Shown piece by piece: positions 3,212-16,320 of a stretch of 17,802 nucleotides of DNA. How positions within the stretch are numbered: position 1 is the first letter of the stretch; each line of letters begins with the position of its first letter. Where the stretch lies: the IMG/VR virus record IMGVR_UViG_2645727843_000004. One strand, given 5' to 3'. The position numbers were made by a program, and so were the translations under genes. The DNA comes from a virus (Duplodnaviria > Heunggongvirae > Uroviricota > Caudoviricetes). The notes under the pieces are model-generated. The model was given only the letters and a program-made list of their open reading frames with translations, ran no database searches and was not told the origin of the DNA.

Positions 3212-3754
3212 TTATCGAAATGAATCGTGCATAGGTACATAAAGCATGTGTTCAGCCACGGCTAACCAACCTGCAATACGTTTCTCACATGTGCTGAAAC
3301 ACCATTCCGGGTGAGTACGATTTAAACATTCTGCCATTTTTCTCTTACTCATTCCCCGTCCTTCGTACCTTTGCCGGAGAATATTGATTAGCCCGGGATA
3401 TTCCCCAAGCACCTCACTGATAACGCGATCAATAATCAACGCCTCTGTGTCTGTACAATGTGACAACCAGCTCTTCTGCTTCCCTCTGGTCATATCCCGA
3501 AAAAATGCCTCAAGTTCCGGTTTTTCCAGCCCGGATTTCTTCATGCTGCGTAAAACCTCATTAACTGCTGTTTTCGTCAGCCTTTTCGAAACCAGTAACC
3601 GGTTAAACATATTTCCGGATTTACCCCCACCGATATACGACCACCGCCCCCACATCCGTAATTTCCCCTGGATCCAGACTGCTTCCAGCGTGTTCAGGCG
3701 TAAATGTTCGCCGCTTTTGCCTGTAATTTCCGGATATATCATATTTACGCTCAC
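3212..3754 (-). CDS. Putative late-gene antiterminator Q-like protein
   Basis: 180-aa ORF directly after rusA (GTGA overlap with the rusA stop; alternative ATG at 3742) and directly before a terminator hairpin and the tRNA cluster. Assignment is mainly positional; sequence family not verified. Confidence 0.5.
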   Translation of the reverse strand: MSVNMIYPEITGKSGEHLRLNTLEAVWIQGKLRMWGRWSYIGGGKSGNMFNRLLVSKRLTKTAVNEVLRSMKKSGLEKPELEAFFRDMTRGKQKSWLSHCTDTEALIIDRVISEVLGEYPGLINILRQRYEGRGMSKRKMAECLNRTHPEWCFSTCEKRIAGWLAVAEHMLYVPMHDSFR

Positions 3755-4122: not shown

Positions 4123-5172
4123 TTACCCGAGCACGCCAGTCGCAAAGGCGTGATCAAGAAAACGAAAAATTAACTCAATCTGAGAGCCGTACTTTTTCTC
4201 AAACTCCAGCGGGTCTGCATGAAGTTCGTTGTGGTGCTCCCGGCACAACGGTAACGTGAAAATATCGTGGGCCTTTGTCCCCATTCCCCCCTGACCATGA
4301 CCAATCAGGTGATGCGGATCGTCAGCAGGCTTACCACAACACGCACACGGCTGTGTCTTTACCCAGCGCGTGTATTTCTCGTTAACCCAGCGGCGACGTT
4401 TAGGTCGTTTCATGAAAGATTCCGGAGACTCAGGATCAACGGCAATGCTGACCACCGTCTTTTCCTGTGGTGGGTTCTGTTGCTGGTGGGCGTGAGGCAG
4501 CGGCGCAAGATTTTTTGTGCGCTGTTTCAGTATGCTGGTGGCGGTCTGCTCTCCCGGCACGATGTCGCTTTCACGGTACATTGAGCGGATTTTTTCCGCA
4601 CGCAACCCCAGCGAACGACGTAATACCGCTTCCGGTAGCGCGTCCGCCACCTGATTGCGGACCGCCCACCAGGATAATTCAGCCAGAGATAATTCACGCT
4701 CCTGCGTACCGCTTATTGCGTGACCGATGACGTCAATCATCCAGGCTGTCAGATTTTGTTGAGCAAGCTGCCCGAGTGATTCGGATGTCTGGTCGCGCAG
4801 CTGGTTGTCGCAGTGCCAGCACAACACCATTGCGCCGGTACCATAACGGTGAATGACGGTTTCGCTGTGATGATAATCGCCGTGTGGCCACTGGCAGGAT
4901 TTAATATAGCGCAACAGCCAGTCAGACAATGCACCAGCACCACCAGCAGCACGAATCACCCGTGCGTTACTGAAAAACGGCAGCAATGTTTTGTCTTCCA
5001 CTAGCGGCTGGCGAACGGCAGGAACAACCCCGGACGGCAGATTACGCATGCTTTTCGGTTCCGGCTCCACCAGTACCCGGGTATTGTGGAATACCGGCAT
5101 GGATTCACGGCCCGGCTTAACGATCACCAGCCCGAGTTCCGGTACCAGAACAGGTCGAAGTAATACCCGCAC
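4123..5172 (-). CDS. DUF968-like prophage protein with a C-terminal HNH-like Cys/His motif
   Basis: 349 aa with a GTG start preceded by GGAGGT. C-terminus CACCGKPADDPHHLIGHGQGGMGTKAHDIFTLPLCREHHNELH. Sits in the nin-region position upstream of rusA. Confidence 0.65.
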   Translation of the reverse strand: MRVLLRPVLVPELGLVIVKPGRESMPVFHNTRVLVEPEPKSMRNLPSGVVPAVRQPLVEDKTLLPFFSNARVIRAAGGAGALSDWLLRYIKSCQWPHGDYHHSETVIHRYGTGAMVLCWHCDNQLRDQTSESLGQLAQQNLTAWMIDVIGHAISGTQERELSLAELSWWAVRNQVADALPEAVLRRSLGLRAEKIRSMYRESDIVPGEQTATSILKQRTKNLAPLPHAHQQQNPPQEKTVVSIAVDPESPESFMKRPKRRRWVNEKYTRWVKTQPCACCGKPADDPHHLIGHGQGGMGTKAHDIFTLPLCREHHNELHADPLEFEKKYGSQIELIFRFLDHAFATGVLG

Positions 5173-5173
5173 G

Positions 5174-5446
5174 TTACCTCCAGATGCGTTGCTGGAATGT
5201 GCGGGACGGACGCGGCGGGCGTTCGGAATAAAGGAGCCTGACGTAGATTATCCAGTGACGGTAGTCGAGGCTAAGGGCTTTCTTAAACTCATACCCACGT
5301 CTGCGGTAGTTATGAATCAGCCATTCGGCCTGTTCTTCAGTGCAGGGATCGTGCTGATACCAGTCATATTTGAATGTGTGAGAACACCGCCCTTGCCTGC
5401 TGGCAGGGGCGATATCAGAATTGTGATGTTTGGTATTGTGCGCCAT
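5174..5446 (-). CDS. Hypothetical nin-region protein (about 90 aa)
   Basis: ORF MAHNTKHHNSDIAPASRQGRCSHTFKYDWYQHDPCTEEQAEWLIHNYRRRGYEFKK...; its stop abuts the start of the next gene. The track start at 5500 is a TTG; the first ATG is at 5446. Confidence 0.5.
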   Translation of the reverse strand: MAHNTKHHNSDIAPASRQGRCSHTFKYDWYQHDPCTEEQAEWLIHNYRRRGYEFKKALSLDYRHWIIYVRLLYSERPPRPSRTFQQRIWR

Positions 5447-5518
5447 CGGTTTTCTCTGCTGGCGCAGCAGGTGCCAGTTGTTCAAGCTGGCGTGCGGCAA
5501 TATTGTCTCTGATTTCTG

Positions 5519-5546
5519 TTGTCGTCAACAGGCAACGTGCTATCAT
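5519..5546 (+). promoter_or_regulatory. Candidate sigma70 promoter for parDE
   Basis: TTGTCG (5519-5524), 16-nt spacer, TATCAT (5541-5546), then SD GAGG and ATG at 5582. Motif match only. Confidence 0.3.
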
Positions 5547-5581
5547 CGAATGGTGTTCTATCCTACTCCGTGAGGTTTACC

Positions 5582-5839
5582 ATGCGTACAACCCAACAAT
5601 TCAGCATTACATTAACTAACGAAATGGCTGACATGGTGCGCGCCCGTGTGGCTTCCGGTGCCTATGCTTCAGAAAGCGAGGTCATTCGTGAAGGGCTTCG
5701 CGCACTGAATGAGCGCGATAAAGCAATCGAAGCGTGGTTAACGCATTCAGCCGCCCCCTCTCTTGATTCTATCCGCGAAAACCCAAACAACGGACGCTCC
5801 ATTTCACAGGTTCGCGCCGCGATTCGATCCGGGAAGTAA
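5582..5839 (+). CDS. parD: ParD-type ribbon-helix-helix antitoxin
   Basis: 85 aa: MRTTQQFSITLTNEMADMVRARVASGAYASESEVIREGLRALNERDKAIEAWL... (ParD/COG3609-like). SD GAGG upstream; followed 5 nt later by the toxin gene. Confidence 0.8.
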   Translation: MRTTQQFSITLTNEMADMVRARVASGAYASESEVIREGLRALNERDKAIEAWLTHSAAPSLDSIRENPNNGRSISQVRAAIRSGK

Positions 5840-5844
5840 TCTGC

Positions 5845-6144
5845 ATGACATATGAAGTCATCATTACTCCTGAGGCCGAACAACAAATAATCAACCTGCA
5901 CAGGTATATAGCGGAGAAAGCAGGGAACGTCATTGCTGACAATTATGCCAATGCGCTTCTTGATTATCTTGATGGGTTTTCTACATTCCCGCATCGGGGC
6001 AATAAACGCGATGATATTCGCCAGGGGATGCGGGTAACTCATTTCCGCCACAGAACGATTATTGCTTTTGCCGTTGATAGCAGAAAAGTCTTTATTGTCG
6101 GTATCTATCATGGTGGGCAAAGTTATGAAACCGATTTCTTATAA
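5845..6144 (+). CDS. parE: ParE/RelE-superfamily toxin
   Basis: 99 aa: MTYEVIITPEAEQQIINLHRYIAEKAGNVIADNYANALLDYLDGFSTFPHRGNKRDDIRQGMRVTHFRHRTIIAFAVDSRKVFIVGIYHGG; classic antitoxin-toxin order and size. Confidence 0.8.
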   Translation: MTYEVIITPEAEQQIINLHRYIAEKAGNVIADNYANALLDYLDGFSTFPHRGNKRDDIRQGMRVTHFRHRTIIAFAVDSRKVFIVGIYHGGQSYETDFL

Positions 6145-6228
6145 ACTTTTACCCACATCATTCCGGTGTTAGAATTAACCGTCCGCCCCCCTCTCTTACT
6201 GGCGGATTCGTAGGCTATATAAATCAAA

Positions 6229-6262
6229 GATCCCGGCTCATGTTTATGTCGGGATCTTTTTT
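6229..6262. terminator. Bidirectional terminator hairpin between parDE and the convergent minus-strand operon
   Basis: Stem GATCCCG/CGGGATC (6229-6235 / 6250-6256) followed by T6 on the plus strand; on the minus strand the same hairpin is followed by UUUGAUUUAUAU. Confidence 0.5.
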
Positions 6263-6269
6263 CGGCGAT

Positions 6270-6353
6270 TTATCCCCAGCGGCAAATCGAATACACCACC
6301 AGCGCCACCGCCATCGCAATTCCTACCGTTGTGAATGCTTCAGGCCAGGTCAT
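6270..6353 (-). CDS. Candidate 27-aa hydrophobic peptide, translationally coupled to the upstream gene
   Basis: ATGA overlap with the stop of the 6350-6694 gene; GGAGG nine nt upstream. Translation [27 protein letters not shown] (one predicted TM helix). Below the ORF-track length cutoff. Confidence 0.3.
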
Positions 6354-6694
6354 CGTAAAATATCCTCCACGCTTATCAGTCCGTTCCGCTCCAGATAACT
6401 CATCGCCTTATCCGGTAATTTGCAGTCTGGCTTCGCTTTCCTCAGTTGCCAGGTTAACTGCTTTACCAGCATGGTTAACTCATCGACCAGACGCTGATAT
6501 CCCACTGGTTTGTATTCATGCAATTTACCGGCTGGCTCTGCTGCCAGCGATACCAGTGCGATTTCCAGAACAGCAATATCCATCTTATATGTGCGGATGA
6601 TGTCATGGTCGATTGTGCCCGGTATGCACAGTCTCTGTGCTTCAATAGTCTCCTCTGCGTGAGCTATTAACTGCTCTCTGGTAAAAGTCGTCAT
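6350..6694 (-). CDS. Hypothetical protein (114 aa)
   Basis: ORF in the minus-strand operon; ATGA overlap with the upstream HNH gene remnant. Confidence 0.55.
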
Positions 6695-6859: not shown

Positions 6860-8054
<1,195 letters not shown>

Positions 8055-12673: not shown

Positions 12674-13099
12674 TTAATGCACAGCCAGAGTGTTTCCTGC
12701 CGGGCCACCACGATTCATCTGATCGAACAGAACGATCGCTGATGCAACGAAATCATCAATATCTTTCACCAGCCGTTCCTTCGTCTCTACCAACTCCCGA
12801 AAATAAGCGGAACTGTGGCTGCGCATTCGGGCCACCAGCAGAGGCGGCATTGCTTTTTCGATAGCTGGTAACAGAGCCTGCATTTTTTCAACGGCATCAG
12901 GAGTATCTTTCTTTACCCAGCGGAAAATTTTCTGGGTATTGCGAGCCAGGGCTTCCGGATGGCTGTCGTCATACAGTTCTGGGAACGTCATACCCAACTC
13001 AAAATAAGCCTGGGTTATTCCAGCTGCTGGAACTTTTTCGCCATCAGGACGCGCCCAGGCATTCATCGCCATGCGGATGTGTTCATGCTTGATTTTCAT
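12674..13099 (-). CDS. YdaT-like (CII-position) early regulator
   Basis: 141 aa, MKIKHEHIRMAMNAWARPDGEKVPAAGITQAYFELGMTFPELYDD...; ATGA overlap with the Cro-like gene. Arrangement matches Rac ydaS-ydaT. Confidence 0.6.
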   Translation of the reverse strand: MKIKHEHIRMAMNAWARPDGEKVPAAGITQAYFELGMTFPELYDDSHPEALARNTQKIFRWVKKDTPDAVEKMQALLPAIEKAMPPLLVARMRSHSSAYFRELVETKERLVKDIDDFVASAIVLFDQMNRGGPAGNTLAVH

Positions 13100-13359
13100 G
13101 AATCAACTCCCAGCGCGGGTTGTGTGTTAGCCTGATAGTCAACAGGTATGCCATCGGTTGGGTTGGGGTAAGTACTGCTATCAATCTCGTGCGGGGTCAC
13201 TACCCACCCTGTTGCTTCACACCAGCGTAAAACTTTCCCCCCCGTAAGTTTCGCCCGTCCAGTAATAACATGGCTTACCATCCCTTGGGTTACCCCAACA
13301 ATTTCAGCAAAATCTTTCTGGGTTATACGGGAATGATGCAAATATTCTCCAAGATTCAT
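13096..13359 (-). CDS. Cro-like HTH protein (YdaS/DicC-type)
   Basis: 87 aa with HTH ITQKDFAEIVGVTQGMVSHVITG; SD GAGGTG; divergent from the repressor gene across an operator-bearing spacer. Confidence 0.75.
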   Translation of the reverse strand: MNLGEYLHHSRITQKDFAEIVGVTQGMVSHVITGRAKLTGGKVLRWCEATGWVVTPHEIDSSTYPNPTDGIPVDYQANTQPALGVDS

Positions 13360-13466: not shown

Positions 13467-13967
13467 ATGAAAAGAAAACCCCTGTCAGAGATCGACCTGC
13501 AAGCCGCCCAGAGACTGAAAGAAATCTGGACGACGAAAAAAACTCAACTTGGGTTAACCCAAGAGCGTGCGGCAGAAATTCTGGGTTTTTCGACACAAGG
13601 GGCAGTAAGCCATTATCTAAATGGTCAGACACCTTTAAATCTAGAGGCTGTTATCAAGTTCGCTGGGTTGCTACAAGTTCCGCCTGAGTCAATTAGACCA
13701 GATATGGCAGACTTGTTACGAATTGTAAGGATGTACCCCCAAGAACTGCAGCAGGATAATGTTGTCGCTTTACCCGCAGAGATGGAGCAATCGGAAAACG
13801 AACTTCCGTTTAATATAGAACCTATAGAGCGAGATTTGATCCAGACGTTCAGGGCTTTCCCAAAAGAAGACAAAGAGAAAATGCTTAAGGAAATGAAGGA
13901 GAAAAAAGAATCAATTGAAGAAACCGTTGCGCGGTGGCTAGAGGCGCAAAAAGGTCGTCGCGCCTAA
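13467..13967 (+). CDS. Prophage repressor, RacR/DicA-type (XRE HTH, no S24 peptidase domain)
   Basis: 166 aa with HTH LTQERAAEILGFSTQGAVSHYLNGQ and an acidic/lysine-rich C-terminus; divergent from the Cro-like gene; same strand as the downstream dicB-type operon. Confidence 0.8.
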   Translation: MKRKPLSEIDLQAAQRLKEIWTTKKTQLGLTQERAAEILGFSTQGAVSHYLNGQTPLNLEAVIKFAGLLQVPPESIRPDMADLLRIVRMYPQELQQDNVVALPAEMEQSENELPFNIEPIERDLIQTFRAFPKEDKEKMLKEMKEKKESIEETVARWLEAQKGRRA

Positions 13968-13984
13968 TCTGAGGAGGTTAGAAC

Positions 13985-14176
13985 ATGAGTACAGTCCTTT
14001 CCCCGATAATTTCAGAATTTGAAACAATCGAACAAGAAAACAGCTATAACGAATGGTTACGCACCAAAGTGGCAGCAAGCCTCGCAGACCCCCGTCCTGC
14101 AATTCCGCATGACGAAGTAATGGCTGAAATGGAAAACCTTATTGCGCAAATAGCTTCGACGAACAGGAGTGAGTAA
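13985..14176 (+). CDS. Putative antitoxin partnered with the downstream ParE/RelE toxin
   Basis: 63 aa, strong SD GAGGAGG; TAATG stop/start overlap with the toxin gene; 17 nt downstream of the repressor stop. Family not assigned. Confidence 0.65.
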   Translation: MSTVLSPIISEFETIEQENSYNEWLRTKVAASLADPRPAIPHDEVMAEMENLIAQIASTNRSE

Positions 14177-14466
14177 TGCTGCCCATTTTATGGCTACCTT
14201 CTGCGCGTGATGATTTGCGTCAGATCGTGGCCTATATTGCCAAGGAAAACCCTCCCGCTGCACGTAGACTAAAAATACGCATTGAAACATCAGTTTTGTC
14301 ACTTTCTGAACACCCTTACCTGTATCCACCAAGCGAAAGAGCTCTAGGCCTTCGTGAGATAGTGACCCATCCTAACTACATAATACTTTACCGAGTAACA
14401 GCATCTAACATCGAGATCGTAAATGTAGTTCACTCACGAAGGCAGTATCCAAACAAAAGCTGTTAA
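14176..14466 (+). CDS. RelE/ParE-superfamily toxin
   Basis: 96 aa: MLPILWLPSARDDLRQIVAYIAKENPPAARRLKIRIETSVLSLSEHPYLYPPSERALGLREIVTHPNYIILYRVTASNIEIVNVVHSRRQYP (ParE/RelE fold signature). Confidence 0.8.
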   Translation: MLPILWLPSARDDLRQIVAYIAKENPPAARRLKIRIETSVLSLSEHPYLYPPSERALGLREIVTHPNYIILYRVTASNIEIVNVVHSRRQYPNKSC

Positions 14467-16092: not shown

Positions 16093-16150
16093 TTCTGGTG
16101 ACATTTGGCGGTATCAGTTTTACTCCGTGACTGCTCTGCCGCCCTTTTTT
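16093..16150 (+). ncRNA. dicF: DicF-like small RNA (ftsZ-targeting sRNA of the dicB operon)
   Basis: TTCTGGTGACATTTGGCGGTATCAGTTTTACTCCGTGACTGCTCTGCCGCCCTTTTTT closely matches my recollection of E. coli DicF, including the GGCGG...CCGCC terminator stem and T-tract; it sits just upstream of dicB, as in Qin. Confidence 0.7.
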
Positions 16151-16320
16151 AAAAGTGAATTTTGTGATGCGGTGAATGCGGCTCAGCACACGCGGAACAG
16201 TTAAAACCAAAAACAGTGTTATGGGTGGATTCTCTGTATCCGGCGTTAATTGTTAACTGGTTAACGTCACCTGGAGGCACCAGGCACCGCATCACAAAAT
16301 TCATTGTTGAGGACGCGATA

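Follow-up and report, generated by a model that had tools for sequence, protein, structure and literature searches.

What is a pair of small genes doing in the middle of a phage operon that runs the other way? The question is raised by parD and parE in the IMG/VR virus record IMGVR_UViG_2645727843_000004, a stretch of 17,802 nucleotides that was analyzed as a whole and is called the window here. parD and parE are read from the plus strand and all genes flanking them from the minus strand; the replication genes lie to one side of the pair and the RusA/Q-like genes to the other. This place is the positional equivalent of the nin region, and the pair is reversed in it, against the early-right operon, as a preliminary description of the window had stated. 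We consider it very probable that parDE is a functional type II ParD/ParE addiction operon and that it travels as an autonomous cassette in a lambdoid prophage. Such an autonomous accessory cassette is a "moron" in the sense of Hendrix and colleagues.

The two genes form a compact bicistronic operon with the antitoxin first. parD (5582–5839, plus strand, ATG at 5582) encodes a ribbon-helix-helix (RHH) antitoxin of 85 amino acids (aa), and 5 nt further on parE (5845–6144, plus strand) encodes a ParE-type toxin of 99 aa. ParD matches the Pfam family ParD_antitoxin (PF03693, 1.6e-7) and scores 53.8 bits against NCBIfam TIGR02606, for which the cut-off is 46.2, placing it among the COG3609/TIGR02606-type antitoxins. 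Its matches in the Protein Data Bank (PDB) are all ParD antitoxins (3KXE, 7B22, 6X0A, 8C24). ParE matches ParE_toxin (PF05016, 1.4e-10). In PHROGs, ParD belongs to family 6494 (1.7e-56) and ParE to family 5232 (6e-43), both classed as moron toxin and antitoxin, and the RefSeq/PGAP names already given are "ParD family antitoxin" and "RelE/ParE family toxin". The pair as such is thus ordinary and was annotated previously in hundreds of E. coli prophages. The ParD/ParE module of the preliminary description is confirmed at its place, on its strand and in its reading frame; both open reading frames (ORFs) are intact, and neither carries a frameshift, the defect that had been named as evidence against it.

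The sequences also look functional. The ParD of the window is identical to the allele common to the O26:H11 strain 11368 and the phage ArgO145, and ParE, otherwise the common RefSeq allele, differs from the one found there and in many genomes of E. coli that make Shiga toxin (STEC) by one substitution, T23A, which falls at a variable position. All 23 of the 23 invariant residues in an alignment of 17 family sequences are present, including the FPxRGNxRDDIRxGxR block. When compared with alleles that are 87–93% identical in DNA, the ratio of nonsynonymous to synonymous differences per site (pN/pS) is 0.08–0.11 for parD and 0.13–0.18 for parE. Judged by these ratios, both genes are under purifying selection. 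The synonymous term itself is uneven: between alleles pS is 0.05–0.06 in parD and 0.20–0.34 in parE, which makes it 4–5 times lower in parD. Together with the breakpoint in O157 relatives at 5858, 14 nt into parE, this low value suggests a recombination hotspot at the parD/parE junction. A 152-aa ORF on the opposite strand (5662–6120, minus) is uninterrupted in the alleles from E. coli and Salmonella and broken in Yersinia. We rejected it as a gene on its near-neutral pN/pS of 0.7–0.9, against 0.08–0.18 in the sense frames.

The limits of the cassette could be read from comparison with related prophages. In BLAST searches, similarity to five hok-carrying prophages stops at 5492–5497, and similarity to hok alleles resumes at 6269. 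The breakpoints at 5496/5497 and 6268/6269 are sharp and reproducible and define a plus-strand cassette of 772 bp (5497–6268); similarity to the Stx2a-phage context begins at 5499. The limits proposed beforehand, 5501–6262, fall within 4–6 bases of the comparative ones. To the left of the cassette lie, all on the minus strand, a 90-aa hypothetical gene (PHROG 1212; 5174–5447), a DUF968 gene (4123–5172), RusA and a DUF1133 Q-like gene; the first two form the conserved left edge of the site. The genes to the right, also on the minus strand, encode a 114-aa hypothetical protein and an HNH endonuclease, followed by the replication genes and the cro/YdaT/repressor region. The right edge of the site is marked by an unannotated, hydrophobic small ORF of 27 aa (6270–6353, minus), whose start codon and the stop codon of the upstream gene overlap (ATGA). 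The right flank shared by three sampled loci with different contents (L002, L007, L024) begins at the stop codon of this ORF, which is retained where the upstream gene differs (L005, L006) and has no match in PHROGs. No direct or inverted repeats of the kind left by transposition were found flanking the cassette, and a possible 6-nt microhomology, CGTGCG, occurs at the left junction in two contexts only. From the sequence, exchange by homologous recombination in the flanks appears a simpler reading than transposition.

This site turned out to be a slot with several alternative contents. Counted at a coverage of at least 80%, parDE is present in 328 of 5426 complete E. coli genomes and is always chromosomal. 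In eight sampled E. coli chromosomes (L001, L005–L008, L021–L023), the 90-aa/DUF968/RusA/Q block borders the module directly on its left, and the right neighbor varies. Where the same left block lacks parDE, a hokD cassette follows in all six sampled prophages (L002, L009–L013), and the Qin prophage of K-12 has rem-hokD-relE-relB at the same position. The hok cassette together with the left flank was found in 2288 of the 5426 genomes; its length in L002 is 483 bp, and it sits between the same two boundaries as parDE. A third occupant, found in 77 genomes, shares the left boundary and is a toxin–antitoxin (TA) pair of the Fic/Doc family (Fic/Doc toxin and a 59-aa partner in L024, 300–1200). Cassettes may also be stacked. 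L007 (3605–4492) holds parDE, a 117-aa ORF and hok, and strain EC13 (L012, 3060–4816) holds a helix-turn-helix (HTH)–Peptidase_M78 protein, which is IrrE-like, with a 204-aa partner and hok. A flank-joining probe, which covers cargo under ~440 bp only, detected an empty slot in none of the 5426 genomes, as expected if loss is counter-selected. The sharp boundaries against hok-carrying prophages and the count of 328 genomes make parDE accessory, which settles against ubiquitous core sequence the choice that the preliminary description had left open. It had also proposed to check for a clean junction in relatives that lack the module. The junctions are indeed clean, but the site is never empty, and another TA cassette is present. 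Across the genomes compared, parDE thus appears as one alternative occupant of an always filled slot rather than as an insertion into an empty junction.

Homologous parDE pairs occur in three further lambdoid contexts, always antisense to the flanking phage genes, with 67–73% aa identity in Salmonella and Yersinia. The induced Stx2a phage ArgO145 and two further Stx2a phages have the pair (98% DNA identity) in their early-left operon, beside an ORF6N antirepressor. Salmonella prophages carry it just downstream of Q (73% aa identity), and Yersinia prophages carry it in the early-left region (67% aa identity). The cassette is thus present or absent among related phages, with sharp boundaries and in four distinct phage contexts. 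Directly to its left in the Stx2a-phage and Yersinia contexts lies a hairpin that resembles a tRNA T-arm (GGTTCGAATCC loop), with another short hairpin after it (L014, 4190–4245; L003, 2900–2957; L018, about 3620–3680). The T-arm-like hairpin is missing from the DUF968 context of the window, so the ancestral cassette may have reached ~60 nt further left.

The region upstream of parD was examined with a promoter scan and by comparison between genera. The promoter proposed beforehand, TTGTCG-16-TATCAT (5519–5546, plus strand), consists of a −35 element TTGTCG (5519–5524) and an extended −10 element TGcTATCAT (5538–5546). Three promoter-like sites were found in the region against 2.6 expected from shuffled sequences, so the hexamers alone prove nothing. 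Conservation is more telling. Across 12 loci from E. coli, Salmonella and Yersinia, the extended −10 element TGCTAnnnT is invariant and lies 35–36 nt from the ATG. The spacing between TTGTCG and the −10 element is 16 nt in E. coli only, and 20 nt in Salmonella and Yersinia. Since the spacing varies between genera, the parDE promoter probably depends on its extended −10 element. The proposal stands for the position and the −10 element, but its −35 spacing is not kept in Salmonella and Yersinia. About 85 nt upstream of the genes move with parDE across the three genera in unrelated flanks, and this joint conservation supports an autonomous promoter. The leader (5547–5581, plus strand) contains a Shine–Dalgarno sequence GAGG (5572–5575) in a block GAAT(A/G)GTGTTCTATCC...GTGAGG conserved across the three genera; the leader stretch GAATAGTGTTCTATCC...GAGG and a TCGTCAA block are also conserved in E. 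coli, Salmonella and Yersinia.

The TCGTCAA block is the invariant core of a palindrome, CTGTTG-N4-CAACAG (5516–5531), that overlaps the −35 region. This palindrome is a candidate for an operator bound by ParD. Read on the minus strand, the block gives TTGACG, and the promoter scan flagged a divergent, outward-facing site here at the left edge of the cassette, TTGACG-18-AATATT (5499–5528, minus; AATATT at 5504–5499). The Stx2a-phage and Yersinia contexts keep the same 18-nt register, with TATATT, and the Salmonella context lacks it. The conserved block would fit such a divergent site or an operator rather than the proposed −35 element. The minus-strand site points into the 90-aa/DUF968/RusA/Q genes and could serve to feed these downstream phage genes, as a ParD operator, or both.

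The 3′ segment of the cassette (6145–6268, plus strand) contains an extended −10-like site, a stem-loop, an A/U-rich linker and a terminator hairpin whose T-run extends to 6262. The hairpin (6226–6237 paired with 6248–6259, a 10-nt loop, T-run 6257–6262) is present where the preliminary description had placed it and folds stably on both strands, with −21 kcal/mol (z-score −4.9) on the plus strand and −17.6 kcal/mol (z-score −4.4) on the minus strand. A terminator scan reported none for the region, because the 10-nt loop exceeds its limit; the hairpin was found by folding instead. Among six variants, the stem pairs in 100% of cells and 5 of the 10 loop positions vary. One variant (L021) has a compensatory A–U to C–G change and a G·U to A–U change; this covariation is not decisive, as it amounts to a single compensatory pair among the six variants and 83 of 500 shuffles do equally well. 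On the plus strand the hairpin is followed by U6, as in a canonical intrinsic terminator, while the minus strand has the weaker tail UUUGAUUU. From fold and tail, it could plausibly terminate transcripts in both directions, those of the convergent operon included. In lambda, terminators that an antiterminated polymerase passes are a known feature of nin regions.

The hairpin is less firmly attached to the genes than the promoter is. The 3′ segment is found in 326 genomes, almost always together with parDE, and is absent from the Salmonella and Yersinia loci. L007 has parDE without it, and similarity there stops at the stop codon of parE. In L024, positions 6167–6268 flank a minus-strand Doc cassette, with neither parDE nor a plus-strand gene upstream, and the T-run is longer (T8). 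By these comparisons, the hairpin segment is separable from parDE and not an obligate part of it. As regards the signals that a moron should own, the promoter is thus conserved, and the hairpin keeps its pairing but can be parted from the genes (L007, L024).

Taken together, these features suggest the following mechanism. In the lysogen, the extended −10 promoter would transcribe parD and parE rightwards, against a silent early-right operon, and the transcript would end at the hairpin and U6 (6226–6262). ParD is predicted to dimerize through its N-terminal ribbon-helix-helix domain and probably represses its own promoter at the conserved TGTTGTCGTCAACA block, while its C-terminal half would bind and neutralize ParE. 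Should the supply of ParD stop, the labile antitoxin would decay and ParE would poison the cell, most likely at DNA gyrase. The net effect would be addiction, with the cassette and the DUF968-RusA-Q side of the prophage made hard to lose. The cassette would have arrived by recombination in the conserved flanks and not by transposition. A slot that is never empty, cassettes that replace one another and the order of decay described below all fit addiction.

Several observations weigh against this account and were considered with it. The literature holds no experimental work on this parDE module that we could find. The closest solved ParE is only ~25% identical, and the closest named plasmid relative of the toxin, KluB of IncP-1β plasmids, is 47% identical. 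Gyrase is the most likely target by analogy at the level of the family. Gyrase poisoning is established for the ParE toxins of RK2 and Caulobacter. The base composition of the cassette is not distinct from its flanks, as would be expected of a moron: the GC content is 0.44–0.51 in the cassette and 0.46–0.57 in the flanks, without a clear step. The failure to detect an empty slot comes from one search design with an 85-nt right-edge probe. PADLOC has no defense model that matches parDE or the second TA system of the window described below, a result that neither supports nor excludes a role in defense. Finally, loss is possible. In strain 317 (L023, 902–1200), parE is annotated as frameshifted beside an intact parD, and in the O157 Stx2a phages parE is reduced to 7 codons. 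In both of these cases of decay, the toxin was lost first; this order and the purifying selection on both genes lend indirect support to a toxin that inhibits growth and is neutralized by its antitoxin.

The O157 phages have kept the antitoxin on its own. This orphan parD (L003, 3043–3330, in an O157:H7 Stx2a prophage) is also found in about 45 Stx2a phage records. It is intact, with 74 of 85 aa identical, and its pN rises from 0.009 in the RHH half to 0.161 in the C-terminal half. A 90-aa ORF resembling a lipoprotein and an HTH gene of HigA-like type stand in place of the rest of parE. On this sequence pattern, the orphan may act as an anti-addiction or anti-defense antitoxin.

It is possible, though somewhat unlikely, that the cassette serves primarily as an anti-phage system of the abortive-infection or exclusion type. 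Another phage, on infecting, would then shut off host transcription or set off the degradation of ParD and so free ParE, the cell would stop before the invader finishes, and stabilization of the prophage would be a side effect. The predicted lysogen promoter, independent of the phage operon, is in keeping with this, as are the carriage of the pair by temperate phages at four different sites and its moron class in PHROGs. Comparable sites have neighboring cargo such as SieB, an outer-membrane protein of the Ail/Lom kind and the TA-associated domain SocA_Panacea, the HTH–Peptidase_M78 pair occupies the same slot in EC13, and the orphan parD kept by the O157 Stx2a phages could be a counter-defense. 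However, the search of PADLOC models gave no match, a published defense phenotype for ParDE of this family was not found in the literature, and the never-empty slot with its cassette-for-cassette replacement fits addiction at least equally well.

A further reading concerns the 3′ segment and is compatible with the addiction operon. Positions ~6176–6262 (plus strand) could be a separate small-RNA (sRNA) gene of ~80 nt, beyond a 3′ untranslated region (UTR) and terminator of parDE; we judge this unlikely. The segment has its own extended −10-like site, TGtTAGAAT (6167–6175, plus strand), flagged by the promoter scan, and folding gives a 5′ stem-loop with a C/U-rich loop (6181–6207, plus strand), the A/U linker and the U6 terminator, with −28.8 kcal/mol and a z-score of −3.5. 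The part from 6167 onwards is retained beside the minus-strand Doc cassette of L024, where the tail is T8, and is missing in L007 despite parDE. Yet the segment almost always accompanies parDE in the 326 genomes, and a recombination breakpoint inside the 3′ UTR would explain L024 equally well. The variation is too small for covariation statistics. An Rfam scan of the whole window gave no match within 5400–6400, and the literature contained no match to the sequence of the 3′ segment.

The class of the toxin was addressed separately, as the Pfam family PF05016 spans gyrase poisons and mRNA interferases alike, and the RefSeq name does not discriminate between them. The AlphaFold model of ParE (mean confidence score, pLDDT, 82.5) has a beta-alpha-alpha-beta-beta-beta topology, a fold that ParE toxins have in common with RelE, YoeB and HigB. 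In a Foldseek search of the PDB with this model, ranks 1–22 are all ParE-type chains, with a template modeling (TM) score of 0.63–0.77; they include PfiT, PrpT, the O157 ParE2 and the toxins from Mesorhizobium, Pseudomonas, M. tuberculosis, Vibrio and Caulobacter. RelE, YoeB, HigB and YafQ come below all of these, with TM scores of 0.39–0.58. Searches of the PDB with a profile of the toxin family returned ParE toxins only, with 6X0A the best at 3.6e-6, followed by 5CEG, 7YCS and 8C24. No relation to the RelE of K-12 was detectable with hhalign, which gave a probability of 0.5% and an alignment that stops before the catalytic C-terminus of RelE, and the partner of the toxin is a ParD-type ribbon-helix-helix antitoxin. 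By profile and by model, the toxin belongs to the ParE branch of the RelE/ParE fold and not to RelE, and it is highly unlikely that it acts as a RelE-like, ribosome-dependent mRNA interferase instead of a gyrase poison.

That the pair is a decaying, nonfunctional relic in a defective prophage is hardly credible: an IS5 copy (6860–8054) interrupts the HNH gene that lies immediately upstream in the operon, the exact mosaic of the window is found in no complete genome and some relatives have a parE that is truncated or a pseudogene, but both ORFs are intact, T23A is the single and benign substitution relative to the STEC/ArgO145 allele, pN/pS is 0.08–0.18, and promoter and ribosome-binding site are conserved.

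The closest systems of solved structure are the ParDE pairs of Mesorhizobium opportunistum (5CEG, 6X0A), Caulobacter (ParD1–ParE1, 3KXE), Vibrio cholerae (ParD2–ParE2, 7R5A) and M. tuberculosis (ParDE1, 8C24). Like the pair in the window, they have an RHH ParD first and a ParE-fold toxin second, and they are the best matches in sequence and fold, yet the identity is about 17–25%. Unlike them, the module studied here is carried by a phage and runs antisense to a phage operon, and its target and operator are predicted. The closest plasmid relatives of the toxin are KluA/KluB of IncP-1β plasmids (R751 and relatives) and a Paraburkholderia plasmid ParDE, with 47–54% full-length identity and a ParD-family partner; they differ in being plasmid-borne, and a functional study of KluA/KluB was not found in the literature. 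PfiT/PfiA of a Pseudomonas Pf prophage (9W3A) and PrpT/PrpA (7YCS) are ParE-fold systems on mobile elements and are among the top fold matches, but their sequence identity is 16–17% and they belong to other hosts and elements. They are reported to control phage production and plasmid replication. The hokD cassette and the rem-hokD-relE-relB of Qin share with parDE the slot beside the 90-aa/DUF968 block, and the boundaries of hok are the same to the base. They differ in kind, as hok is a type I system with a membrane toxin under antisense RNA control and RelE is an mRNA interferase, while parDE is type II. They also differ in orientation, hok and relBE being oriented with the phage operon and parDE reversed.

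The prophage of the window carries a second ParE-fold toxin. A PaaR/PaaA2/ParE2-type TA locus of three genes (13467–14466, plus strand) occupies the repressor position and encodes a cI-like HTH regulator of 166 aa, a PaaA2 antitoxin of 63 aa (13985–14176; Pfam 2.9e-22; PDB 3ZBE 1.7e-22) and a ParE2-like toxin of 96 aa (14176–14466; PDB 5CW7 2.2e-35). By its sequence matches, we take the locus to be a paralogue of paaR2-paaA2-parE2 of CP-933P in E. coli O157:H7. That system is addictive and was proposed to stabilize the prophage region (PMC8630535), and it offers an analogy for the addiction role suggested here. It, too, is a prophage-borne system with a ParE-fold toxin (Foldseek TM about 0.70–0.75). 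It differs in having three components, in its PaaA2, which has no domain for DNA binding and relies on the cI-like PaaR2, in its sense orientation within the immunity region, and in an antitoxin fold unrelated to ParD. The ParE of the cassette and the ParE2-like toxin are 21% identical (E 0.24), which bears out the earlier remark that they have no obvious similarity. As the antitoxin architectures are unrelated, cross-neutralization between the two systems is unlikely. Divergent from the second locus is a cro/YdaS-like gene (13096–13359, minus), with a YdaT-like gene beside it (12674–13099, minus), an arrangement that matches the immunity layout of CP-933P (PMC8630535).

Other features of the window were recorded alongside. 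Within the early-right operon, the IS5 element (InsH transposase 7006–7986, minus) interrupts the HNH endonuclease gene and is flanked by a 4-bp target duplication, as seen by comparison with the uninterrupted HNH gene of ArgO145 and O26. A polar effect of the insertion on the genes from there to Q is probable. Rfam identified a DicF RNA (77 bits; 16093–16144, plus), an STnc100 sRNA (138.7 bits; 1377–1567, minus) and three tRNA genes (1647–1893, minus) downstream of the Q-like region, and a weaker second STnc100-like match at 16158–16298. The window is a mosaic, and no complete E. coli genome holds at least 80% of it in one place.

The slot itself invites a broader proposal, which we regard as tentative and rather doubtful in its full form. 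It may be a dedicated TA slot of lambdoid prophages that is never empty, at which unrelated TA families (hok/sok, ParDE, Fic/Doc, RelBE) swap or stack within common limits, since a cassette in residence can give way to another but is not readily deleted. In this proposal, the parDE occupant would add an outward promoter, possibly ParD-controlled, towards DUF968-RusA-Q and possibly the ~80-nt sRNA, and the orphan parD of the O157 Stx2a phages would act as anti-addiction or anti-defense against a resident ParE. For Qin, it is already known that relBE integrated at the hokD locus (PMC6379469). The generalization to a fixed, always occupied slot with several TA families and shared boundaries was not found in the literature.

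For the biology of these prophages, the parDE pair is routine, and the comparative picture of the slot is the more useful result. A slot with exchangeable TA cassettes is shared by the prophages of O26, O103, O111, O145 and O157 STEC, by Qin of K-12 and by an inducible Stx2a phage. The presence of two unrelated ParE systems in one prophage matters for the curing or engineering of such prophages. The slot offers a natural system in which to ask whether TA modules persist by resisting deletion, that is, by addiction, or by defense against phages, and whether the orphan antitoxins of Stx2a phages neutralize resident toxins.

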